Both the position numbers and the translations under genes were made by a program. The notes under the pieces were generated by a model. The model saw nothing but the letters and a program-made list of their open reading frames with translations, did not search any database and was not told the origin of the DNA. Positions 14,093-26,399 of a stretch of 64,000 bases of DNA are shown one piece after another. Position 1 is the stretch's first letter. Every line of letters begins with the position of its first letter. Source of the DNA: Chloroflexota bacterium (GTDB lineage Bacteria > Chloroflexota > Limnocylindria > P2-11E); contig JBBPIP010000010.1 in NCBI GenBank assembly GCA_038040265.1, positions 9,901-73,900 of the forward strand, written 5' to 3'.

Positions 14093-14995
14093 TCATCTCG
14101 CGCCGGCCGCGACCGCGGGAATCTGCGAGTCGAGGAACGCGCTGAGGCGGGCCTGGTACTCGAGCGGGTAGCGGTTGAACGCCCAGGAGTGCTGGCAACC
14201 CGTGGCGATCCAAAGCTCGGACGCCTTGCTCGCGGCAAGAAGCTCGCGCGGGTGATGAAGGGCGATGAGCTCGTCCGCGTCGCAGTGGATGAAGAGGATC
14301 GCACGCTCGGGGTGGGCGCGGACGACGTCGATCGGGCGCACCTGATCTCCATCGAGGCCGAAGACGACGTTCGAGAAAAACAGGACCCCGGGCGTGAACC
14401 AGCCGGGAACCCCGGCTACCACCTCGAGGTCCTCGCCGACGATGGTCCGGGCATCGGTATACGAGGAGTCGGCCACGACCGCTCCGACATTCGGGTGAAG
14501 CAGTAGCGCCTGCAGCACCGTTCCGGCACCCATCGAGATGCCGATGAGCGCGATCCGGCTCTCGGGCACACCGCGACCGGTCACGTAGTCGATCGCGGCG
14601 GCGACGTCGCGGCGCTCGAGGTAGCCGAGCGAGAACCGTTCGCCGTCGCTATCGCCGTGACCGCGGAGATCGAAGAGCAACACGTCGTAGCCGTCGGCAA
14701 CGAGGAAGTCGGCGATCTTCTCCGCGGTCCTGTTCTCTCCCGCGACGCGGTTGCTGTCCTTCCCGTGGACCACGATCGCGGCGCGATCGCCGCCGGTCCG
14801 GAAGTACCAGCCTCGGAGCGTGAGGCCGTCGTTCGTTCGAAAGCTCACGTCTTCGTACGCGGGAGCCACGACGAGCGGCGCCCGAGGCACGCGGTAGCGG
14901 ACGGCGTGCGTGAAGCGTTCCGCCACGACGTACGAGACGGAGAGGTAGCCCACCACGCCAGCGAACAAGGCGACCGCGAGGAGGCGGCGTTTCAA
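14093..14995 (-). CDS. Alpha/beta hydrolase (membrane-anchored, S9/hydrolase_4-like)
   Basis: N-terminal TM helix. Nucleophile elbow GISMGAG. Asp and His motifs: LFDLRGHGDSDG, IHCDADELI. Confidence 0.75.
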   Translation of the reverse strand: MKRRLLAVALFAGVVGYLSVSYVVAERFTHAVRYRVPRAPLVVAPAYEDVSFRTNDGLTLRGWYFRTGGDRAAIVVHGKDSNRVAGENRTAEKIADFLVADGYDVLLFDLRGHGDSDGERFSLGYLERRDVAAAIDYVTGRGVPESRIALIGISMGAGTVLQALLLHPNVGAVVADSSYTDARTIVGEDLEVVAGVPGWFTPGVLFFSNVVFGLDGDQVRPIDVVRAHPERAILFIHCDADELIALHHPRELLAASKASELWIATGCQHSWAFNRYPLEYQARLSAFLDSQIPAVAAGAR

Positions 14996-15891
14996 CGGAC
15001 GACCGAAACCGGGATCTGCGCCTCGAGAAATGCGAGCACGTGGGTGCGGTACTCAGCGGGATAGATGTCCATCGCCGCGGCGTGATCGCACCCGTGCGCG
15101 ATCCAGAGAGCGCTCGCCGAATTCGCGCTGGCCGCGCGCAGGTCCTGAGCGTGATGAACCTGGATGAGCGGGTCGGTGTCGCAGTGGATGAAGAGGATCG
15201 CCCGCTCGGGATGCGCGCGCACAACTTCGATCGGGCGGACCTGGTCACCGTCGAGGCCAAAAGCGATCCGGGTCATCAAGAAGACGCCAGGCGTGAACCA
15301 GCCCGGCACGCCGCCCTCGCGAGGGAGCACCTCCTGAACTTCCGTGAAGGCGTCCATGTACGAAGAGTCGGCAATGACCGCGCCGACCTTCGGATGCAGG
15401 AGCAGCTCCTGTATCGCGGTGCCTGCGCCGAGCGAGATGCCGAGGAGCGCGATTCGCTTTTCCTCGAAGCCGCGGCTCGCTACGAAGTCGATGGCCGACG
15501 CGACATCGAGGCGCTCGAGCTGGCCAAGCGAGAAACGATCGCCATCGCTGTCGCCGTGGCCCCGAAGATCGAACAGGAGAACGCTAAAACCCTGGGCGAT
15601 GAGGAAATCGGCGATGTGCTCGAGCCGACCCTGGTACTCGGCGCGATTCGCGTGCCGGCCGTGGATCAGGATAGCGGCGCGGTCACCGCGAACGGGGAAG
15701 AACCAGCCCCGGAGGGTGAGGCCGTCGCTCGTCCGAAGGACGACGTCCTCGTACGTCGGGGCGGCCACTTGCGGCGCCCGGCCGATCGGGTGCCGCTCGG
15801 CGTGGGTGAGGCGGTCGGCGACGACATAAGACACCGAGAGGTAGCCGACCACACCGGCGAGAAGGGCGACGGCGAGGATCCTGCGTTTCAT
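14992..15891 (-). CDS. Alpha/beta hydrolase, tandem paralog of 14093..14995
   Basis: Roughly 65% identical to its neighbour along the full length, with the same TM anchor and the same GISLGAG and HGDSDG motifs. Start taken at MKRRILAV (15891); the track ORF begins at 15936. 4-nt overlap with the downstream paralog. Confidence 0.75.
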   Translation of the reverse strand: MKRRILAVALLAGVVGYLSVSYVVADRLTHAERHPIGRAPQVAAPTYEDVVLRTSDGLTLRGWFFPVRGDRAAILIHGRHANRAEYQGRLEHIADFLIAQGFSVLLFDLRGHGDSDGDRFSLGQLERLDVASAIDFVASRGFEEKRIALLGISLGAGTAIQELLLHPKVGAVIADSSYMDAFTEVQEVLPREGGVPGWFTPGVFLMTRIAFGLDGDQVRPIEVVRAHPERAILFIHCDTDPLIQVHHAQDLRAASANSASALWIAHGCDHAAAMDIYPAEYRTHVLAFLEAQIPVSVVR

Positions 15892-15926
15892 TGAGGGTGG
15901 CGACCCTAGGTTGGCCCTATCAGGCC

Positions 15927-15942
15927 GTCCCGGCAACGGGAC
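15927..15942. promoter_or_regulatory. 6-4-6 palindrome GTCCCGgcaaCGGGAC in the divergent hydrolase / repeat-membrane-protein intergenic region
   Basis: Perfect inverted repeat. A CGGCAAC direct repeat lies nearby (15931-15937 and 15955-15961). Confidence 0.25.
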
Positions 15943-16003
15943 TCATCCGGAATGTCGGCAACCTCACGTTTCGCGCTCAACCGAGGCGCATCATCAGAGC
16001 TTC

Positions 16004-18403
16004 ATGAACGAAGGGCGCACCCTCCCAGCGGTCCAACGCGCATACCTCTACATCGTCGCGCTCGTCGGAATCCACATGGTCGTCCTCGCGGTCGCGAACC
16101 TCCTGCGGGTCGGAGCGGAGATCGCCGTGAGCGCGCCATCCGGTGGTTTCACCGGACTCCCCTTCGTGTTCAACGACTTCAACCGCCCGAGCGAGCTCTA
16201 CCGCGAGCAGGCCAGCCTCGCGATCGCGCTCCTCGCCGTCGGCGGACCCGCGTGGTGGCTGTCCTTCCGCGCCGCCGACAACGCCGCCCGCCGCGACGTC
16301 GCGGCCCGCGCCTCGGCGATCCGCAGCTTCTACGTGCACCTGGTCATCTTCGTCACCGCGCTGCTCGTGTTCGGCTACGGGCAGCGAACGCTCGGTCTGG
16401 TCCTTCAGGGAACGTTCGCCGGCGCGCTCCCCGGGCTCTTCCTCGAACCCGCGTGGGCCGCGCGCGCGGCGGGTGCAGGCGCGATGGTCCTTACCGCTGC
16501 GGGCGCCCTTGCGTACCACGTCCGCCTCTCGGAGTCGGATCGCCGCGCCACGGTGATCGGGGGACGAGCCGCCGAGGTCCGGCACCTCGCCCTCTACGGT
16601 CTCGCGGTCATCGGCCTCTTCTTCGCGGCCTTCTCGACGGCGTTCACGCTGCAAGGGCTCTGGGACCGTGTGGTCGCTGATTCGCTCGTCACGTTGAACC
16701 GTCCCGACTTCGGACCGCCGGACTTCCAGGCGCCGACCCGCGACGAGATGCTGCGCATTCAGCTCGTAAATCAGATCCCCCCGATCCTCGCGGGCCTCGC
16801 GCTGTGGCTCGGCACGTGGCTCCCGCTGCAGCGCGGGCTGCGCCGACCGAACGCGGACGGCGAGATCGAGCGTCGATCCGTCATTCGCAAGCTCGCGATC
16901 TATCTCATCGTCGGGCTTTCGGCCATCGTGGTCCTGATCTCGACGACGTTCGGTTTGGCGGCGGTCATCCGCCGTCTGCTCGGCGATCCGTTCCAGGAGC
17001 AGTTCACGAGCGTCGTGCACGACCTCGGATTCCCGGTCGCCTTCACGATCATCTTCGCGCCGCTCTGGCTATTCCACCGTCGCGTCGTCGAAGCCGAAGC
17101 CGCGCGCGAGACCGAACTCGGCCGGGCCGCAGCCATCCGACGCCTGTACACGTACGTCGTCGCAGCGTTCGGCCTCGCGATGGCCGCGATCGGCGCGGCG
17201 GGAACGATCGGCGTCTTCGGCAGCCAGCTCATGGGGATGAACACCCATCAGAACGGGGAGACCGCGACGTACCTTTCTCTCGTTCTCGTCGGTCTCCCAG
17301 CGTGGGGCTTTCACTGGTTGCAGGCGCAGCGGCGGCTCGACGAGGCCGAGCGGCGCGCGACGCAGCGTCGCGGTTATCTCTACCTCGCGGTTCTCGGTGG
17401 CGCGATCGGGTTGCTGGTGTTCGGCTCGGCCGCGCTGTACCGGCTCCTCAACGCCGCCCTCGCAGCCGACTTCCCGCTCTCGACCTGGCACGACATCTGG
17501 CACTTCACCGTGGACGCCGCGGTCGCAGGTACGGTGTTCGCGTTCCACTGGCGCGTGATCCGCGCCGATCGGGTCGTGACCGCAGCCGCCCCGGCCATCG
17601 AAGCCGCGCCCTCGGTCTTCACCTACGTCGTGCGCGTGCCCGCACCGACCGCCGCCGAGGCCCGAGCGCGCCTCGCGGCCGCGCTCCCGGAAGCGCAGGT
17701 GACCCCTGCGGACGCGGCGTCCGGCGAAGGGGACGGCGGCCCGAGCATCGTCGCCATCGCCGGGACGCTCTTAGGCATCCTTCTCCTTCTCTTCGTTGTT
17801 TCGACGTTCGCGCTGGGCCCGTTCTTATCGTCGCAGGGCGGCGCTCCTGCCCCTGGGCCTCAAGCCCTGCCCGCGGGTCGACCGATTTGGGTCGCGACCG
17901 TGACTCAGGATCCCTTCGCGACGGAGACCAGCGGCGGTGCCTACATCCGCAGGGAAGGCGCTCTCACCTTCAATTTCAAGGAATCAGGCCAGGCGACCGT
18001 CACGTTTCCCGAGTTTGCGGCACCGTTCATGGCGATCGCGGTGATCTCCAGCACGCCGGAGTCGGATGGAACGCTCCTGTGGCGAGTGCGCGCGGTCGGC
18101 GAGAGGAGCGTGGCGCTGCGGGTCAACGTGTCCAGCCACTCGGCCGATCTCGTCTACCACGACGAGACCAGCGGCGTCACGGAAGTGCTCGGCAATGCCA
18201 TACCGCTACGGGACCTCTCGACCCCGATGGAGTTCGCAGTCCTTGTGCGCACGCCCGGCTACGTGGTGTTCATGGACGGAAAGCCGATGATCGAGGTGAC
18301 CGAAGAGCGTCTCGATACAACGAGCTCCGCGCTCTCGATGACGGCAACCGGGACCACGGGGATGATCGCGTTGATCGAGCTCCGCGTGCACGAGGCACCC
18401 TAG
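16004..18403 (+). CDS. Large integral membrane protein with 4-5 tandem two-helix repeats and a C-terminal beta-rich domain of about 200 aa; hypothetical
   Basis: ATG at 16004 (MNEGRTLPAVQRAYLYIV...). Repeated unit is [PxWxxxW/H...RR] helix + [AIRxxYxYxV...G] helix: AIRSFYVHLVIFV / VIRKLAIYLIVGL / AIRRLYTYVVAAF / QRRGYLYLAVLGG. The track ORF starts at 15911. Confidence 0.6.
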   Translation: MNEGRTLPAVQRAYLYIVALVGIHMVVLAVANLLRVGAEIAVSAPSGGFTGLPFVFNDFNRPSELYREQASLAIALLAVGGPAWWLSFRAADNAARRDVAARASAIRSFYVHLVIFVTALLVFGYGQRTLGLVLQGTFAGALPGLFLEPAWAARAAGAGAMVLTAAGALAYHVRLSESDRRATVIGGRAAEVRHLALYGLAVIGLFFAAFSTAFTLQGLWDRVVADSLVTLNRPDFGPPDFQAPTRDEMLRIQLVNQIPPILAGLALWLGTWLPLQRGLRRPNADGEIERRSVIRKLAIYLIVGLSAIVVLISTTFGLAAVIRRLLGDPFQEQFTSVVHDLGFPVAFTIIFAPLWLFHRRVVEAEAARETELGRAAAIRRLYTYVVAAFGLAMAAIGAAGTIGVFGSQLMGMNTHQNGETATYLSLVLVGLPAWGFHWLQAQRRLDEAERRATQRRGYLYLAVLGGAIGLLVFGSAALYRLLNAALAADFPLSTWHDIWHFTVDAAVAGTVFAFHWRVIRADRVVTAAAPAIEAAPSVFTYVVRVPAPTAAEARARLAAALPEAQVTPADAASGEGDGGPSIVAIAGTLLGILLLLFVVSTFALGPFLSSQGGAPAPGPQALPAGRPIWVATVTQDPFATETSGGAYIRREGALTFNFKESGQATVTFPEFAAPFMAIAVISSTPESDGTLLWRVRAVGERSVALRVNVSSHSADLVYHDETSGVTEVLGNAIPLRDLSTPMEFAVLVRTPGYVVFMDGKPMIEVTEERLDTTSSALSMTATGTTGMIALIELRVHEAP

Positions 18404-18975
18404 GAGCCAGCGGTCCGCGAAACGCGGGCGTGATCCTCTGGTGTGTCGATGTCGTCCAGCGAACCCAGCGCCTCCGTGACGGCGAATTCGACGACGTCTT
18501 GATCCTTGAGCACCTCACGCATACCGACATCTTTGTGAAGAGCGAACGCGGCGGGCCAAAGGCTCTTGTGAAGGACCACCGGCGGCGAACGACGACCGCG
18601 CCAGACCGAGACAACCGCTGACGCGCGGGTCTCCCGGCCACGGAAGACGAGCTCGTCGATCAGCGCCGTAGTCACACCGGGAACGTCGCCGAGGAGCACG
18701 AGCGCGGCGTGCAGGTTTGAGTCGAGGCCGCGCAGGCCGATCTGGAGCGAGCTCGCGAGGCCCCGCGCGGGGTCCGGGTTGTGCACGACGCGCGCTCGAC
18801 CCGCGTCCAGCTGAGCCAGGAGATCGTCCCCGCTCGGGCCGACGACCAACACGATGTCCTCGAGGCACGATGCGTTCGCTGCGTCGATCACGTGTTGCAG
18901 CAGCGGTCGACCACCGAGTGGCGCGAGCAGCTTCTGGGCGCCGAAGCGGCGCGCTTCTCCCGCCGCGAGGATCAC
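18400..18975 (-). CDS. MobA/MocA-like nucleotidyltransferase (molybdenum-cofactor cytidylyltransferase-like)
   Basis: The GTG at 18975 gives IGGVILAAGEARRFG...KLLAPLGGRPLLQHVID, a NTP_transf_3 motif. It is the last gene of the cox operon. The track ORF's 94-aa N-terminal extension is Ser/Arg-rich and implausible. Confidence 0.7.
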   Translation of the reverse strand: MILAAGEARRFGAQKLLAPLGGRPLLQHVIDAANASCLEDIVLVVGPSGDDLLAQLDAGRARVVHNPDPARGLASSLQIGLRGLDSNLHAALVLLGDVPGVTTALIDELVFRGRETRASAVVSVWRGRRSPPVVLHKSLWPAAFALHKDVGMREVLKDQDVVEFAVTEALGSLDDIDTPEDHARVSRTAGS

Positions 18976-19000
18976 TCCGCCGATCTGCGGCGGGTCGGCC

Positions 19001-20062
19001 TCAGCGCGCGGCTGCAACCGGCTCGGCGGAGAGGCTCCGACCGCCGCGATGACGGCGAACCGCGACGATCTCGGCGAGGATCGCGAGCGCGATCTCCTCG
19101 GCGGTACCGGCGCCGATGTCGAGACCAATGGGCGCGTGGACGCGCGCGAGGTCGACCTCTCCGAAGCCCTGGTCGCGCAGCCACGCGAAACGTTCCTCAT
19201 TGGTTGTTCGGCTTCCGATCGCGCCGATATATCCGGACTCGGTTCGTAGTGCCGCAACGAGCGCGGGGTGGTCGAACTTTGGATCGTGCGTGAGGACCAC
19301 GATGGCCGAACTCGCGCCGAAGGTCAGCTTCGCGAGCGCGACGTCGGGCCATGCGAGCAGGAGCTCGTCAGCGAGAGGAAAGCGCTCGCGGTTCGCCAGC
19401 GCCTCGCGTGGATCGGCGACGACCACGCGATAGCCGACTGCTTTCGCGAGCGACGCCAGCGCCTGGGCTGTGTGCGTCGCCCCGACGATCGCGAGGAGCG
19501 GCGGGGTCCCGAGCGCCTCGAGGAAGATCGTGGCCTCGCGTCCGCCGAGTGTCGCGGGAACAGAGCGAGGTCTTCCCTCGGCCAGTGCGGCGACCGCCTG
19601 GACCTTGCTCGCCTCGAGCTCTGGAGGCCACCGGTCGACGCGATCCTCCCGCAGGATCGCGACTGTGCCAGCGCGGTCGGGAGGTGCGACGACCCGCAGG
19701 AGCACGGCTGCGCGCTCAGCGCGCACGGCTTCGAGCGCCGCGCGGTGCAGCGCGCCGACCGGCTCAATGAGCACGTCGATCTCACCCCCACACGAGAGAC
19801 CTACCGTGAAGGCGAACTCGTCGCTGATCCCATAGGTCACGACCCGCGGGTGGCCATCCTTCAACACGGCCATGGCTTCCTCGTACACCGCGGACTCGAC
19901 GCACCCGTTGCTGACTGAGCCCGCGAGCCGGTCGCCGGCGCGCGCGATGAGCGTGGCGCCGAGCTGCCGTGGAGCTGATCCCGCGATGCGCACGACGGTC
20001 GCGATCGCCACCGGCTCGCCCGTGGCGAGCCACTGCTCGAGCTCGGCCGCGACCTCTTTCAT
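19001..20062 (-). CDS. XdhC/CoxI-family molybdenum-cofactor insertion chaperone
   Basis: XdhC_CoxI N-domain (EPVAIATVVRIAGSAPRQLGATL) plus Rossmann XdhC_C (PLLAIVGATHTAQALASLA). ATG start at MKEVAAEL (20062). Confidence 0.8.
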   Translation of the reverse strand: MKEVAAELEQWLATGEPVAIATVVRIAGSAPRQLGATLIARAGDRLAGSVSNGCVESAVYEEAMAVLKDGHPRVVTYGISDEFAFTVGLSCGGEIDVLIEPVGALHRAALEAVRAERAAVLLRVVAPPDRAGTVAILREDRVDRWPPELEASKVQAVAALAEGRPRSVPATLGGREATIFLEALGTPPLLAIVGATHTAQALASLAKAVGYRVVVADPREALANRERFPLADELLLAWPDVALAKLTFGASSAIVVLTHDPKFDHPALVAALRTESGYIGAIGSRTTNEERFAWLRDQGFGEVDLARVHAPIGLDIGAGTAEEIALAILAEIVAVRRHRGGRSLSAEPVAAAR

Positions 20063-21039
20063 CGCGTGGCCGCGAGCGCGGCGGCGGGGTCCTTCAGGAA
20101 TCGGCGGCGGCACCCCTCGCCGCAGAAGTAATAGGTGGTGCCGTCGTAGTCGGCGCGGAGCGCGGTCGGCGTGATCGCGACGACCATGTCGCAGATCGGG
20201 TCGACCGCCTCGGCCGGTTTGGCCATCGGCTGGAAGTTACGGTGGGTCTCGGGCAGAGATGCGGCGACGCTCTCTCGCGCGTGCCGGTGCATCAGGATCT
20301 GCGCGAGGATCGAAAGCGCGATCTCCTCGTCGCTGGCGTGACCCATGTCGAGCCCGGCGGGATAGACGAGCCGCGTGACCTGCGCCTCGGTCAATCCGCG
20401 CCGCATCAGCGTGTCGCGAATCACGTCGCCCCTGGTCTGGCTTGCGACGAGGCCGATGTAGCTCGCCGGAGTCCGGAGCGCCTCCTCGGCCGGGTCCTCG
20501 TCCGCGTCGCCGCGCATGGCGATGACGATCGACGTGCGCGCGTCGACGTTGACGTCCGCGAGCTCGGTCGTGATGCGGTCGGCGGTGGGAAAGTCGACGG
20601 CGTTGACGTTCGGTTCCGCGACGACCACGTATCGGCCGAGCGCCGATCCGAGCGCCGCCAGCGCGCGCGCGACCGGCGTCTTTCCCAGGACGACGAGCTG
20701 CTCGGTCGGAAGGAGCGGTTCGATATGGATCTCCAGCGTGCCGCCTGAGTGGCACGTCATAGGAAAGTGTCGCACTCCAGGTCGCGGCGCTCCGGAGGTC
20801 TTGGAAATCTCGATCAGCCGTGCCTCGCCGTCGGCGATCGCCGCGACGGCCTCGCGGATAACCACCGGCGCCGCGCAGCTCCCGCCGATCCAGCCGGTGA
20901 GCCTGCCGTCCGGAGTGATGATCGCCTTCGCCCCGGGCTTCGCGGACGTCGGCCTGTCGGCGCGAACGACGGTCGCCGTCGCGAAAGGCTCGCGTCGCGC
21001 GAGGAGCTCGGCGGCGAGCTCGAAGAACGACGCGCTCAC
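20059..21039 (-). CDS. XdhC/CoxF-like protein fused to a C-terminal YHS/TRASH metal-binding domain
   Basis: Starts ...SASFFELAAELLARREPFATATVVRAD... (GTG after GGAGG) and ends DPICDMVVAITPTALRADYDGTTYYFCGEGCRRRF, a YHS consensus. The track's 560-aa ORF 20059..21741 is an artefact that runs through the upstream coxE gene in another frame. Confidence 0.65.
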   Translation of the reverse strand: MSASFFELAAELLARREPFATATVVRADRPTSAKPGAKAIITPDGRLTGWIGGSCAAPVVIREAVAAIADGEARLIEISKTSGAPRPGVRHFPMTCHSGGTLEIHIEPLLPTEQLVVLGKTPVARALAALGSALGRYVVVAEPNVNAVDFPTADRITTELADVNVDARTSIVIAMRGDADEDPAEEALRTPASYIGLVASQTRGDVIRDTLMRRGLTEAQVTRLVYPAGLDMGHASDEEIALSILAQILMHRHARESVAASLPETHRNFQPMAKPAEAVDPICDMVVAITPTALRADYDGTTYYFCGEGCRRRFLKDPAAALAATR

Positions 21040-22193
21040 GCAGCCTCCGCGCGGCGAACCGGCCGGCCGCGGCCGACGTGTCCGAGAAGCTCCGCGATGC
21101 GCGCCAGTCCGTCGAGCGTGTTCGCCGCGAGATGGTCGTCGGCGTGACCACTCAAAGCGCGCGCGCCGCGCGCGTCGGGCGAGTAGTCGCGCGTGCCCGA
21201 GAGTGGATCGAGCCAGATGAGTCGGTAGGCCGCGCGCTGCAGGCGGGCCGCTTCGCGCTCGAGCAGCGCGGGATCTCCGCGCTCCCAGCCATCGGTGACG
21301 AGTAGGACGATCGCGCCGCGGCCCAAGACCCGCCGCGACCACCGGAGATTGAACTCGTGCAGCGCTTCGCCGATGCGGGTCCCGCCGGACCAGTCCGCTA
21401 CGGCGCGCGAGACGTGCGCGAGGGCGGCATCGGGACGGCGCTCGCGCAGCTGTCGCGTGATGCGGGTCAGGCGCGTGCCGAAGGTGAATGTCTCGACGCG
21501 GCCCCAGCCTCGCGCGAGTGCGTGAGACATGTGCAGGAGGAGGCGGGTGTACGCCTCCATCGATCCGGAGACGTCGCACAGGATGACGAGCGGGCGCCGC
21601 TTCACGCGTCGCGCCCGGCGGATGAGCACGGCGGGCTCGCCGTGCGTGGCGAGCGATTTCCTCATGGTCGCGCGCGCATCCAGGCGCGACCCGTTTCGCG
21701 AGGAACGGAAGCGCCTGCTCGGGCGCTGGCCCGGCGACCACTGCAAACGCTCGAGGAAGCGCGCGGCCGCGGCGCGCTCGGCGGCGGTCATGGCCGAGAA
21801 GTCGGTGCTGCGCAGGAGCTCGGTCGGGCTTGCCATCACTCGGACGGTGCGCTCGATGAGCGACGTCATTCGGCTCGGCAGGTGCCCGAGCGGGACCTCG
21901 ATCTCGCCGGTCTCGACATCGGGCCGGCGGGCGCTGGGGATCGGCGACGAGAGACGTCCCCCGCGGAGGAGGGACCAGAAGATGTTGAACGTCACATCGA
22001 ACGCGGTGAGGTCGGCCTGGCGGGACACGAGGGCGGTGCGGCTCGCGGCGCGCACGTCGTCGGGACGCTCCAGGTCGATCTCGGCGATCGCCTGAAGATA
22101 GACGCGGGAGCGCTCGGCGTTGACGTGGACACCGGCCCGGCGAAGGAGTCGCGGGAGCATCAGGAGGTTCCGCGCGACGCGGTCGTCAGTCAC
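21036..22193 (-). CDS. coxE: CoxE-like vWA-domain protein
   Basis: vWA/MIDAS motifs: PLVILCDVSGSM, IVLLVTDGWERGDP. GTG start at 22193, overlapping the coxG stop (GTGA). Confidence 0.75.
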   Translation of the reverse strand: MTDDRVARNLLMLPRLLRRAGVHVNAERSRVYLQAIAEIDLERPDDVRAASRTALVSRQADLTAFDVTFNIFWSLLRGGRLSSPIPSARRPDVETGEIEVPLGHLPSRMTSLIERTVRVMASPTELLRSTDFSAMTAAERAAAARFLERLQWSPGQRPSRRFRSSRNGSRLDARATMRKSLATHGEPAVLIRRARRVKRRPLVILCDVSGSMEAYTRLLLHMSHALARGWGRVETFTFGTRLTRITRQLRERRPDAALAHVSRAVADWSGGTRIGEALHEFNLRWSRRVLGRGAIVLLVTDGWERGDPALLEREAARLQRAAYRLIWLDPLSGTRDYSPDARGARALSGHADDHLAANTLDGLARIAELLGHVGRGRPVRRAEAA

Positions 22194-22633
22194 GTGGCCT
22201 CGAGCTTCGCCTTGATGCAGGAGAACATCTGCTGGGTGATCTTGTCGGCCGCGCCCTGCATGAGCCTGGCGCCGACTTGCTGGATCATCCCGGACACCGA
22301 GACGTCGCTCGCCCATTTCATCGTGGTGCGCGTCCCGTCGAGCGCGGTGAGGTCCATCGTGCTTCGCATCTCGACGGCGCTCCCCGGCGCCTGGCCGCGC
22401 GCCAGCACGGAGGCATGACCGGGCTCCTCGAGCTCCGTGAACTCCACGTTCATCGAGAAGGTTCCCTTGATGGGCCCGACGCCGGCCCGGACCACGACCT
22501 TGAAGTGGCGCGGGTCGGTGATGTCGAGACTTTGCACGTCGGGCGCGCACGTCGTGACCTGCTTCGGATCGGTCAGGAAGGACCACACCCGATCGCGCGG
22601 TGCGGCTATGTCGAGCGTGCCCTCGAAACGCAT
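22190..22633 (-). CDS. coxG: CoxG (SRPBCC-fold CO-dehydrogenase subunit G)
   Basis: 147 aa; MRFEGTLDIAAPRDRVWSFLTDPKQV is typical of CoxG/polyketide_cyc2. Positioned directly after coxL. Confidence 0.8.
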   Translation of the reverse strand: MRFEGTLDIAAPRDRVWSFLTDPKQVTTCAPDVQSLDITDPRHFKVVVRAGVGPIKGTFSMNVEFTELEEPGHASVLARGQAPGSAVEMRSTMDLTALDGTRTTMKWASDVSVSGMIQQVGARLMQGAADKITQQMFSCIKAKLEAT

Positions 22634-22646
22634 CCCTTGGGCTAGG

Positions 22647-24998
22647 TCACTCCGCCACGCCGTTTTCCTTGAGGATCTTCTGCACCTTCCACGGTGTGAT
22701 TGGGATGTCGATGTGCCGAACGCCGAGATGAGCGAGCGCGTCGACGACCGCGTTCGCGATCGCCGCGGGTGCGCCGACGGTCGCTGACTCGCCGACGCCC
22801 TTCGCGCCGATGGGGTGGTGCGGCGATGGCGTCACGGTTTTGCCCAGCTCCCAGTTTGGGGTTTCCATCGCCGTGGGCAGGAGGTAGTCCATGAAGTTGC
22901 CGCCCTGTATGTTCCCGTCGTCGTCGTAGTTGATCTGCTCGTAAAGCGCGGGCGCGAGGCCCATGGTGAGGCCGCCGTGGACCTGACCCTCGACGATCAT
23001 CGGATTGATGATGGTCCCGCAGTCGTCCACCGCGACGAAGCGGCGGATCTTCACCTCGCCGGTGCCCTTGTCGATGTCGACGACGCAGATATATGAGCCG
23101 AATGGGTAGGTGAGGTTCGGGGGGTCGTAGTAGTCCACCGCCTCAAGCCCCGGCTCCATGCCCTGCGGGTGGTTCGTGTACGCGGCGAACGCGATCTCCT
23201 GCATCGTCTTCGACTTCGTCGGGACGCCCTTGACCTGGAACTTGTAGTCCTTCCACTCGATGTCGTCGGGGTTCGCTTCGAGGAGATGCGCCGCGATGAG
23301 CTTCGCCTTCTCGCGGATCTTCCGCGCCGCCAGCGCTGTGGCCGCGCCCGCGACCGGCGTGCTCCGGCTCGCATAGGTGCCGAGGCCGTACGGCGCGGTG
23401 TCCGTGTCGCCCTCCTCGACCGCGATGTCGCCGACCGGAAGCCCGAGCTCCTCGGCGACGATCTGCGCGAACGTCGTCTCGTGACCCTGACCCTGTGACT
23501 TCACACCGAGGCGGACCATCGCTTTGCCCGTCGGGTGCACGCGAATCTCGGCGGAGTCGAACATCTTGATGCCAAGGATGTCGAAGTGCTTCGACGGCCC
23601 TGCGCCGACGATCTCCGTGAAGCTTGAGATGCCGATGCCCATGAGCTCGCCCTTGGCGCGCTTCGCGGCCTGCTCCTTGCGGAGCTCGGCGTAGCCGATC
23701 TTGTCCATCGCCAGCTTGAGCGCGCGGCCGTAGTTACCGCTGTCGTATTCCCACCCGAGGACGGACTTGTACGGGAATGCTTCGGGCGGAATGAAGTTCT
23801 GCATCCGTAGCTCAGCGGGGTCCTTCTTCAGCTCGAGAGCGAGCACGTCGACGAGCCGCTCGATCGTGAAGGCGGCCTCGGTGACGCGGAACGAGCAGCG
23901 GTACGCGATGCCCCCCGGAGGCTTGTTCGTGTACGCGCCATCGACCTCGACGAACGACTTCTCGAACGGGTAGCTGCCGGTGACGACGTGGAAGAGCCCC
24001 GCCGGGAACTTGGACGGGTTCGCCGCGGCGTCGAACGCGCCGTGATCGGCGATCGTCTTCACGCGGAGGGCCTGCATCGTGCCGTCCTTCTTCGCGGCGA
24101 GCTCGGCGGTGATGTGGTAGTCCCGCGCGAACGAGTCGGCCTGGATGTTCTCGGAACGGTCTTCGATCCACTTGACCGGATGCCCGGTGAGGACCGACGC
24201 GCCGATCGCGAGCACGTAGCCCGGGTAGACCGGCACCTTGCCGCCGAAGCCACCGCCGATGTCCGGCGAGATGACGCGGATCCGCTCCTCGGAGAGGCCC
24301 AGGTGACCGGCGACGAGCGCGATGACCGTGCGAATCGCGTGGGGCGCCTGCGTCGTCATCCAGACGGTGAGCTTGCCATTGATCTTGTCGAAGCTCGCCA
24401 CCATGCCACACGTCTCGATCGAGGCGACGTGGATTCGCGGGATGTAGATGTCCTGCTTGACGACGACCTCGGCGTCGGCGAAGGCCTTGTCGGTCCCGGC
24501 CTTGTCGCCGACCTCCCAATGCCAGATGTGGTTGTCCTTCTGCGCGCGGTCCTCGCGCACGATCGTGGCGCCCGGTAGGAGCGCTTTGATCGGGTCCACC
24601 ACGACCGGAAGCGGCTCGTAGTCGACCTCGATCGCCGCGACGCCGTCGGCCGCGATGTAGCGCTCGGTCGCGACGACCGCCGCCACCTCCTGCGCCTGGT
24701 AGAGCACGGTGTCCGTCGGCAGGACCATCTGCTTGTCCGACATCAGCGTCGGCATCCACTCGAGCTTGAGCGGGACGAGGTCCTTGCCGGTGATCACGGC
24801 GAGCACGCCGGGGATGGCGAGCGCCTTCGAGGTGTCGATGCTCTTGATGCGCGCGTGCGCGTAGGGGCTGCGGGCGATGTCCATGTAGAGCATGCCCGGC
24901 AGCTTCACGTCGTCGACGTAGTTGCCGCGGCCGCGGATGAAGCGCGCGTCTTCCTTGCGCTTGACGCTCACGCCGATGCCGCCGATCTCTGTAGCCAC
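22647..24998 (-). CDS. coxL: Form I carbon-monoxide dehydrogenase large (molybdopterin) subunit
   Basis: 783 aa in the aldehyde oxidase / xanthine dehydrogenase molybdopterin-binding family. Contains the form-I-specific active-site loop GGIAYRCSFRVTEAA (AYXCSFR). Confidence 0.9.
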   Translation of the reverse strand: MATEIGGIGVSVKRKEDARFIRGRGNYVDDVKLPGMLYMDIARSPYAHARIKSIDTSKALAIPGVLAVITGKDLVPLKLEWMPTLMSDKQMVLPTDTVLYQAQEVAAVVATERYIAADGVAAIEVDYEPLPVVVDPIKALLPGATIVREDRAQKDNHIWHWEVGDKAGTDKAFADAEVVVKQDIYIPRIHVASIETCGMVASFDKINGKLTVWMTTQAPHAIRTVIALVAGHLGLSEERIRVISPDIGGGFGGKVPVYPGYVLAIGASVLTGHPVKWIEDRSENIQADSFARDYHITAELAAKKDGTMQALRVKTIADHGAFDAAANPSKFPAGLFHVVTGSYPFEKSFVEVDGAYTNKPPGGIAYRCSFRVTEAAFTIERLVDVLALELKKDPAELRMQNFIPPEAFPYKSVLGWEYDSGNYGRALKLAMDKIGYAELRKEQAAKRAKGELMGIGISSFTEIVGAGPSKHFDILGIKMFDSAEIRVHPTGKAMVRLGVKSQGQGHETTFAQIVAEELGLPVGDIAVEEGDTDTAPYGLGTYASRSTPVAGAATALAARKIREKAKLIAAHLLEANPDDIEWKDYKFQVKGVPTKSKTMQEIAFAAYTNHPQGMEPGLEAVDYYDPPNLTYPFGSYICVVDIDKGTGEVKIRRFVAVDDCGTIINPMIVEGQVHGGLTMGLAPALYEQINYDDDGNIQGGNFMDYLLPTAMETPNWELGKTVTPSPHHPIGAKGVGESATVGAPAAIANAVVDALAHLGVRHIDIPITPWKVQKILKENGVAE

Positions 24999-25002
24999 CG
25001 AA

Positions 25003-25526
<524 letters not shown>

Positions 25527-25527
<1 letters not shown>

Positions 25528-26399
25528 TAGGCACCTCCCTTCGCGCGAGCGACCGCTTTGACGATCGCCCGCTGCGTGAGCACGCGGACGACGTCCTTCT
25601 TGTATTCGGCAGGCCCGCGCAGGTCGGAGACCGGCTGGGCCGCCGCCGCCGCCCTGGACGCAGCCTCAGTGATCGTCTTGTCGTCGGGAGTCTGGCCGGT
25701 GAGCACGTCCTCGGCCCGGCCTGCGCGGATGGCTGTCGGCCCCACATTGGTGAGGCCGATGCCCGCCCGGGCGACCTTTCCGCTTGCGTCGAGCGTGAGC
25801 ATGACGGCGACGCCCGCGATCGCGAAGTCTCCGACCTTGCGCTCGAACTTGAGGTACACGCCGCCGCTCTTGGGAGCCGGCTTTGGGACGCGGATCTGAA
25901 TGAGAATCTCGTCCGGCGCGAGCGAGGTGGTGAACGTGTCGACAAAGAGCTCGTCGATCGGGATCACGCGCTCGCCCTTCGGGCCCTGCACCACGACGGA
26001 CGCGCGAACCGCGAGCATCGTCGCGGGGTGGTCGTTCGCGGGATCGGCGTGCGCGAGGTTGCCACCGATGGTCGCGAGGTTGCGCACGAGCGGATCGGCG
26101 ACCACCGCGGCTGTGTCGACGAGGATCGGATACCGCTGCCGGACGATGGGATTCGCTTCGAGGTCGTTCTCGCGGACGAGCGCACCGATGCGGAGGTCGC
26201 CGTTCTCCTTGATCTCCGACAGTCCGGCGACGCGGTTGATGTCAATGAGCAGCGCCGGTTGCGCGAGCCGGAACTTCATTAGTGGGATAAGGCTCTGGCC
26301 ACCGGCGAGGATCTTTCCCTCGCCGCCCGAGCCTCGCAGGAGCTCGATTGCGTGGGCGACGTCGCGCGCGACCGCGTAGTCAAACGATGCCGGGATCAT
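25527..26399 (-). CDS. coxM: CO dehydrogenase medium FAD-binding subunit
   Basis: FAD_binding_5 + CO_deh_flav_C: ILAGGQSLIPLMKFRLAQPALLIDI, ATIGGNLAHADP. GGAGG lies upstream of the ATG. Confidence 0.9.

Follow-up and report, generated by a model that had tools for sequence, protein, structure and literature searches.

In the MHYT domain (PF03707), every other helix carries an M-H-Y-T motif at its outer end, and CoxC of Afipia carboxidovorans, a repeat-built membrane sensor encoded in the cox cluster, senses CO via copper (PMC11347149). The subject of this study is a membrane protein of similar general build, the product of a DUF5671 gene (Pfam family PF18920) in a 64,000-nucleotide stretch of the genome of a Chloroflexota bacterium (GenBank assembly GCA_038040265.1, contig JBBPIP010000010.1, positions 9,901 to 73,900), referred to below as the window. 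Like the MHYT domain, DUF5671 consists of tandem two-helix membrane units with a repeated motif containing His and Tyr, and both CoxC and the DUF5671 protein of the window are encoded beside the genes of aerobic CO dehydrogenase. However, the window protein has no match to PF03707 at E<=1, its motifs are different, being composed of Arg, Tyr, Trp and His on the predicted cytoplasmic face, and it contains no LytTR, GGDEF/EAL or other output domain.

The DUF5671 gene lies within an open reading frame (ORF) spanning positions 15911-18403 of the forward strand, and the ATG at 16004 yields a product of 799 amino acids (aa); this start agrees with the conserved N-termini of the relatives and with an NCBI entry of 799 aa, 100% identical and labelled "DUF5671 domain-containing protein [Chloroflexota bacterium]". 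An earlier, sequence-only reading of this DNA could not place the protein in any known family. That was wrong, since the whole protein matches PF18920 in four stretches with 167.5 bits (E=1.7e-49), compared to the Pfam gathering score of 28.4 bits, and the NCBI annotation already names the family. No NCBIfam model matched the protein, no PADLOC model of anti-phage defence matched it or either of the two hydrolases encoded upstream, and no second DUF5671 gene was found within the window.

The family is broad. When 1.84 billion cluster representatives were searched exhaustively with HMMER, relatives were recovered in 1,033 clusters (50% identity) at E<=0.001 and in 656 clusters at E<=1e-10. The best 150 of the 1,033 clusters are mostly proteins of 500-670 aa that align with the whole core of twelve transmembrane (TM) helices at 30-35% identity. 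The window protein shares the motifs of the family and its usual triple-domain layout, found in hundreds of clusters, whereas its clade differs by an added thirteenth TM helix, by a concanavalin-like domain, predicted to be extracellular, for which Pfam has no model, and by a segment of about 30 aa, probably a stump, in the place where distant relatives carry a DUF3842 module. Among the GTDB species genomes, a search with a narrower alignment yielded 20 related loci, all of them from Chloroflexota and mostly from metagenome-assembled genomes of Candidatus Limnocylindria; a profile search with a diverse alignment recovered chiefly the same close relatives.

Hydropathy analysis and the full-length AlphaFold2 model concur on 13 TM helices, which bears out the earlier description of a large membrane protein. 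The first twelve helices form six hairpins, U1 to U6 (aa 8-98, 102-182, 188-291, 292-365, 375-450 and 452-522), and successive pairs of hairpins make up three DUF5671 domains (Table 1). The model helices of these domains span aa 9-41, 66-97, 105-139 and 151-182 (domain 1), 187-228, 246-279, 293-325 and 342-368 (domain 2), and 372-409, 417-443, 453-487 and 492-527 (domain 3). When the three thirds of the core (aa 1-189, 185-371 and 371-529) were scanned separately against Pfam, each exceeded the gathering score of the family, domain 3 being the copy nearest to the Pfam consensus. Three single hairpins (U1, U4 and U5) also pass this threshold alone; the other three (U2, U3 and U6) fall below it, but DUF5671 is nonetheless their top match.

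Profile-profile comparison reveals the order in which these units arose. Alignment of sub-alignments by hhalign over about 150 columns related the block of hairpins 1-2 to the block 5-6 with P=1.3e-11, and the block 3-4 to the block 5-6 with P=8.3e-12. At the level of single hairpins, odd units resemble odd units (U1-U5, P=2.8e-9; U3-U5, P=3.4e-6) and even units resemble even units (U4-U6, P=2.3e-6; U2-U6, P=3.4e-5), whereas the odd-even pairs are weaker, with P=9e-5 or worse. Therefore the triplicated unit is the four-helix DUF5671 domain, itself the product of an older hairpin duplication. We consider it almost certain that the protein, from a soil Chloroflexota genome of Candidatus Limnocylindria-like type, is a DUF5671 inner-membrane protein with 13 TM helices, whose core consists of three tandem four-helix domains of two older hairpins each. 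The ancient intragenic duplication proposed by the sequence-only reading is thus supported both by the separate Pfam scores and by the profile alignment of the thirds, and the repeats survive a statistical check. Their number does not: in place of four or five two-helix repeats there are six hairpins with a period of four helices. Of the repeats that had been located by eye, those at about aa 100-165, 290-350, 380-440 and 455-510 match hairpins 2, 4, 5 and 6, while hairpins 1 and 3 had been missed; the supposed fifth repeat at aa 520-560 is a non-hydrophobic stretch between TM12 and TM13 and forms no membrane hairpin.

Table 1. Coordinates of the DUF5671 gene, of the parts of its product and of neighbouring features (window positions unless another locus is named)
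Feature	Position	Strand	Basis and remarks
DUF5671 protein gene, complete	16004..18403	+	ATG 16004, stop 18401-18403; 799 aa; ORF list, Pfam PF18920, identical NCBI protein
DUF5671 domain 1 (aa 8-185), TM1-TM4, hairpins U1+U2	16025..16558	+	58.2 bits alone
DUF5671 domain 2 (aa 186-372), TM5-TM8, hairpins U3+U4	16559..17119	+	57.8 bits alone
DUF5671 domain 3 (aa 373-525), TM9-TM12, hairpins U5+U6	17120..17578	+	85.0 bits alone
Short conserved soluble segment (aa 537-566, 'VFTYVVRVPAPTAAEARARLAAALPEAQV')	17612..17701	+	Predicted cytoplasmic; no membrane repeat
TM13 (aa 582-604)	17747..17815	+	Hydropathy, model helix 582-604, loop charge count; predicted to return the chain across the membrane
Beta-sandwich ectodomain (aa 625-799)	17876..18400	+	13 strands between aa 627 and 797 in the AlphaFold2 model; Foldseek against PDB
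Membrane-anchored alpha/beta hydrolase 1 (299 aa from ATG 15891)	14992..15891	-	Pfam Hydrolase_4 / Abhydrolase_1; divergent from the DUF5671 gene
Membrane-anchored alpha/beta hydrolase 2 (300 aa)	14093..14995	-	Pfam; tandem paralog
Inverted repeat GTCCCG-gcaa-CGGGAC	15927..15942		Within the 110-bp intergenic region; judged chance
Aerobic CO dehydrogenase (cox) cluster, complete	18400-26399	-	Downstream, convergent
LysR-type regulator gene	L003 7109-7993; also L010, L011, L013-L024	same strand as DUF5671 gene	Directly upstream of the DUF5671 gene

Each hairpin is framed by two motifs: its first helix opens with [S/A]-x-x-R-x-x-Y-x-Y, and its second helix closes with G-x-P-x-W-x-x-H(-W), beyond which lies an Arg cluster. 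Both had been noticed from the letters of the sequence, the helix-end motif in a form that had to be amended to P-x-W-x-x-H(-W). In an alignment of 35 sequences sharing 24-69% identity with the window core, four columns are invariant (R107, W355, W434 and R455), and all four residues are present in the window protein. Near-invariant columns are Y14, Y16, A75, H87, H172, R193, W268, S292, R295, R379, Y382, Y384, G430, W438, Y458, L471, H515 and D522, and 17 of these 18 positions are kept in the window protein. All of them save A75, G430 and L471 are motif residues, with a conservation of at least 90%; the residues of the R-x-x-Y-x-Y and W-x-x-H motifs are almost the sole positions conserved family-wide. 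The exception in the window protein is position 87 at the end of TM2 (16262-16264), where it and its closest relatives have Ser and 34 of the 35 members have the motif His. The motif is locally decayed in hairpin 1.

The motif-bearing loops contain 35 Lys or Arg in 178 residues, compared to 10 in 153 residues for the alternate loops. The positive-inside rule would place the N-terminus and the motifs on the cytoplasmic side and the C-terminal domain outside. At 27-42 residues the TM helices are long, and on the side of the motifs they continue as helical extensions. The sequence-only reading had suggested cofactor or lipid binding; the positions of the Trp, His, Arg and Tyr residues at the predicted cytoplasmic interface seem to fit contact with lipid headgroups or clamping of helices better than a buried cofactor. 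The 35-sequence alignment contains no charged or polar residue conserved family-wide in the membrane core, a point against a central substrate site common to the family. The Limnocylindria clade (at least 43% identity) has a further invariant set of residues on the outer face, namely H24, N32, R35, E39, H415, E419, H496, D497, W499, H500 and D504, together with the loop G-F-T-G-L-P-F-V-F. In the wider family this set is variable, H24, H415, H496, H500 and D504 being kept in 10-13 of the 35 sequences.

Sub-threshold co-matches of family members to two further Pfam families, DUF4153 (one of 35) and UCR_TM (eight of 35), were judged to be compositional or helix-start resemblance.

The full-length AlphaFold2 model has a mean predicted local distance difference test (pLDDT) score of 81.5, with most of the 12-TM core at 82-96; a model of the core only reached a pLDDT of 87.2 and a predicted template modelling (pTM) score of 0.83. 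The C-terminal beta domain reported previously is indeed present in the model, where most pLDDT values from aa 641 onward are 84-92. When the full model was compared with the PDB by Foldseek, 197 matches were obtained at E<=0.001. The best 50 of them are all beta-sandwich proteins of the lectin/glucanase type, and therefore match the C-terminal domain rather than the TM core. They include the carbohydrate-binding module CBM66 (4b1m/4azz), YesU (1oq1), the L-type lectins Emp46p and VIP36, and GH16 glucanases, with E-values of about 1e-6 to 1e-4. For CBM66 (4b1m), the TM-score is 0.75 and the root-mean-square deviation (rmsd) is 3.3 Å over about 160 residues at 7% identity to the ectodomain. The ectodomain therefore has the concanavalin-A-like lectin/glucanase (CBM66-like) fold, the beta-sandwiches of this structural superfamily being superimposable on it.

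At the level of sequence, the ectodomain belongs to neither the CBM66 nor the GH16 family: identities are 7-13%, no Pfam family matched it at E<=10, no CAZy-type match was found, and direct reading of aa 605-799 showed that the catalytic E-x-D-x-x-E of GH16 is absent. A sequence search with the ectodomain alone returned just five gene fragments of the same family and no outside relatives, and a PDB sequence-profile search with the C-terminal part gave only spurious matches of low-complexity or Rossmann-like type. In contrast to CBM66, YesU, the lectins and GH16, it forms part of a 13-TM protein and not of a glycoside hydrolase or a secreted protein.

The ectodomain does not evolve in step with the core. 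We compared relatives P0003-P0038 with the window protein as a reference, and among those with 83-97% identical cores the identity of the ectodomain is bimodal, either 76-97% or 43-59%; for cores of 83-94% identity the two ranges are 76-89% and 43-59%. For instance, two relatives with core identities of 93.5% (P0013) and 92.6% (P0019) have ectodomains that are 46.6% and 42.8% identical, whereas in two others with less similar cores, 88.9% (P0003) and 85.9% (P0008), the ectodomains are 89.1% and 84.7% identical. This suggests replacement or recombination, a cassette-like exchange, or else strong diversification or diversifying selection of an exposed module; the mismatch between core and ectodomain is the pattern expected of an exposed ligand-binding module. 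The comparison is evidence that the ectodomain changes, by exchange or by diversification, without regard to the core.

The region following TM12 varies within the family as well. Relatives of about 576 aa stop just past a short beta-alpha-beta segment and lack both TM13 and the ectodomain, whereas those of about 800 aa, found in both Limnocylindria clades, continue as the window protein does with TM13, a Pro-rich linker and a beta domain that is recognisably related yet very divergent. In distant relatives with 30-35% identity (P0162, P0176, P0205, P0225, P0254 and P0273), TM12 is followed by the Pfam domain DUF3842 (PF12953) and then by a tail TM helix. The segment at aa 537-566 of the window protein, with conserved columns V543, A553, R554, R556 and L557, occupies the same place, after TM12 and before the tail helix, and resembles by eye the first beta-alpha-beta unit of DUF3842. 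However, it has no glycine motif, falls about 100 residues short of the domain and forms just one short helix in the model (aa 550-560), and aa 520-799 have no match to PF12953 even at E<=10. We suggest that this segment is probably what remains of a cytoplasmic DUF3842 domain that has been lost.

DUF3842 itself, which makes up the C-terminal 140 or so aa of these distant relatives, contains a V-x-V-x-D-x-G-D-G-x-x-G segment similar to a Rossmann dinucleotide-binding loop. A comparison of its profile with PDB sequences gave no solved relative, the matches being spurious (Rossmann-like or low-complexity), and a literature search for DUF3842 produced one irrelevant paper.

The explanation that we prefer, with a probability of about 0.3-0.35, is that of a membrane scaffold or transducer core, held by its motif clamps, which carries a variable ligand-binding, probably glycan-binding, ectodomain. 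The 12-TM core would be a rigid scaffold or transducer and not a substrate-translocating carrier. Its six Arg/Tyr/Trp/His clusters may clamp adjacent helices and contact headgroups of the inner-leaflet lipids, while the core would present the rapidly diversifying lectin-like ectodomain to a carbohydrate or to another ligand of the envelope or environment. The resulting signal, or anchoring, could then be relayed to the cytoplasmic hairpin tips and, in distant relatives, to the DUF3842 module.

Several points weigh against this explanation. The similarity of the ectodomain to lectins is one of fold, at the 7-13% identity given above, and the concanavalin-like fold is found in non-lectin proteins as well; sugar binding by the ectodomain is putative. 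No recognisable output domain is present in the DUF5671 protein. The role of the motifs as clamps and lipid contacts is proposed from their position, and the topology is predicted from the positive-inside rule. A pure scaffold also leaves the outer-face cluster and the invariant loop of the Limnocylindria clade unexplained: the residues H24, E39, H415, E419, H496, D497, H500 and D504, together with the loop SGGFTGLPFVF, could be the sign of an active site or of a site that binds metal. Finally, neither DUF5671 nor PF18920 is mentioned in any paper of the literature that was searched.

More doubtful is a role of the 12-TM core as a new-fold secondary transporter or exporter, in which the repeats provide the pseudo-symmetry of a carrier and the ectodomain captures or selects the substrate. 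Twelve TM helices derived from repeated units would suit such a protein, as would the polar residues in or near the membrane that are conserved in the Limnocylindria clade (H24, N32, R35, E39 and D504). Genomic context offers a further hint. In a sister clade, the DUF5671 gene is directly preceded on its own strand by a LysR gene, 76-94% conserved, the two being separated by 8 nt or overlapping by 4 nt; this was observed in 17 of the 20 fetched full-length loci with 53-65% core identity. LysR genes often accompany genes of transporters or exporters. An eighteenth locus, L012, was assumed to belong to this group and gave no LysR match. However, the core could be assigned to none of the transporter superfamilies considered (MFS, MATE/MOP, ABC TMD, POT and others). 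The best Foldseek hits of the core-only model in the PDB are MFS proteins with E>=0.13, TM-scores of 0.12-0.19 and rmsd above 17 Å, which is no match, and the sequence-profile search of the PDB with the core was empty save for spurious low-complexity or Rossmann-like matches. Thus the confident hit to a characterised transporter family that would have overturned the sequence-only reading did not appear. Moreover, the intramembrane polar residues are not conserved in the wider family, in contrast to those of the cytoplasmic interface, and helices of 27-42 residues with protruding cytoplasmic hairpins are unusual for carriers.

The LysR regulator is much better conserved than the DUF5671 protein, and the window has no copy of it. 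The neighbours of the DUF5671 gene in two distant loci are unrelated, for example dnaN, isochorismatase and PEP mutase genes.

The complete cox cluster downstream of the DUF5671 gene consists of mobA-like, xdhC, xdhC-YHS, coxE, coxG, coxL, coxS and coxM genes; coxL carries the form-I AYRCSFR loop, and one of the xdhC products has a YHS metal-binding domain. The stop codon of the DUF5671 gene overlaps that of the convergent mobA-like gene (18400-18402), which leaves no room for a terminator between them. This context raises the possibility that the DUF5671 protein is a membrane partner of CO dehydrogenase, acting as a docking site, a copper handler or a gas or metal sensor, by analogy with the MHYT membrane proteins encoded in proteobacterial cox clusters, for which CoxC is a precedent (PMC11347149). 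The DUF5671 gene abuts the cox genes in three arrangements, represented by the window with L001, L008 and L009, by L006, and by L028 and L029, two of the 20 loci with 53-65% core identity, where it lies directly opposite coxM; the conserved His/Asp/Glu cluster on the outer face of the clade also speaks for a partner of this kind. Nevertheless, we regard this explanation as unlikely. CoxL is 91-96% identical in all cox-adjacent loci, so that the genomes are closely related and the adjacency may be inherited synteny, and the fetched flanks of the LysR-linked sister clade and of the distant relatives contain no cox genes. To this are added the lack of an MHYT match, the cytoplasmic rather than outer-face location of the family-wide motifs, and the absence of a DNA-binding or other output domain. 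An elaborated version, with a core of a new fold serving CO dehydrogenase either through an outer-face cluster that handles copper or senses gas or metal, or by docking the enzyme, and with the ectodomain as a second environment-facing input, appears more unlikely still. One local difference within the cox cluster was seen in L001, which has an extra alpha/beta hydrolase gene between coxE and coxG (L001 14214-15047); the window has none there.

On the other side, the DUF5671 gene is divergently transcribed from the two membrane-anchored alpha/beta hydrolase genes, which prove to be tandem paralogs as described before. Their products are 67% identical, each with an N-terminal KRR-TM anchor, and the end of the hydrolase 1 gene shares 4 nt with the beginning of the hydrolase 2 gene. 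The nearest solved relative of these proteins is the esterase 5g59 (E=1.9e-22 for hydrolase 2). The tandem duplication is observed in the window only, the relatives holding one copy; this copy groups with either paralog, being 89% identical to copy 1 in L008 and 79% identical to copy 2 in L009.

It could be imagined that the DUF5671 protein works with these esterases, a lipid or envelope substrate being delivered or accepted between them under a shared palindromic operator. One such divergent hydrolase is present upstream in five fetched loci (L001/L002, L006/L007, L008 and L009), all with at least 68% core identity; the pair stays together in L006 despite different surrounding genes, and the hydrolase catalytic domain, as judged from the KRR-TM anchor, and the ectodomain are both predicted to be extracellular. 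However, the hydrolase is absent upstream in all 20 loci with 53-65% core identity, including the cox-linked L028 and L029, and in the two distant loci. Therefore the esterase link is lineage-restricted: the co-occurrence for which a check had been proposed holds in close relatives and fails in the sister clade and beyond. The double copy is confined to the window, and the hydrolases are generic esterase-like enzymes.

The operator fares no better. A palindrome had been noticed earlier in the shared promoter region. The inverted repeat of Table 1 is the sole perfect one there with arms of at least 6 nt and a spacer of at most 8 nt, but an equal or better repeat occurs in 21% of shuffles of the region and in 34% of all 110-bp segments of the 64-kb window, and it is not preserved in the intergenic regions of L001, L008 and L009; it was therefore rejected as an operator. 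A scan found neither a sigma-70-like promoter nor a terminator in the intergenic region. Taken together, a partnership with the esterases seems improbable.

A cytochrome-b-like electron carrier, with heme or another redox cofactor bound in the membrane by the conserved His and aromatic residues, might be suggested by the near-invariant His that ends five of the six even helices (H87, H172, H358, H437 and H515) and by the weak matches of eight of 35 members to the Rieske TM-region family UCR_TM. It is highly improbable, because these His lie at the cytoplasmic interface beside Arg clusters and not as paired ligands at matching membrane depths, position 87 is Ser in the window protein, the UCR_TM matches are below cut-off and explained by a shared R-R-x-x-Y/F-L helix start, and neither the PDB profile search nor Foldseek found likeness to any solved cytochrome.

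Returning to the scaffold or transducer with a ligand-binding ectodomain, we note that the protein was catalogued beforehand, and the present results settle no open question and overturn no expectation: it belongs to a catalogued family as an ordinary member or variant in which DUF3842 has given way to TM13 and a lectin-like ectodomain. These observations indicate that the C-terminus of the family is modular, consisting of a DUF3842 domain, of nothing, or of TM13 with a lectin-like ectodomain. DUF5671 is a sizeable 12-TM family, catalogued but unstudied, and with a confidently predicted core for which Foldseek gives no match in the PDB it is a fair target for structural and functional work.

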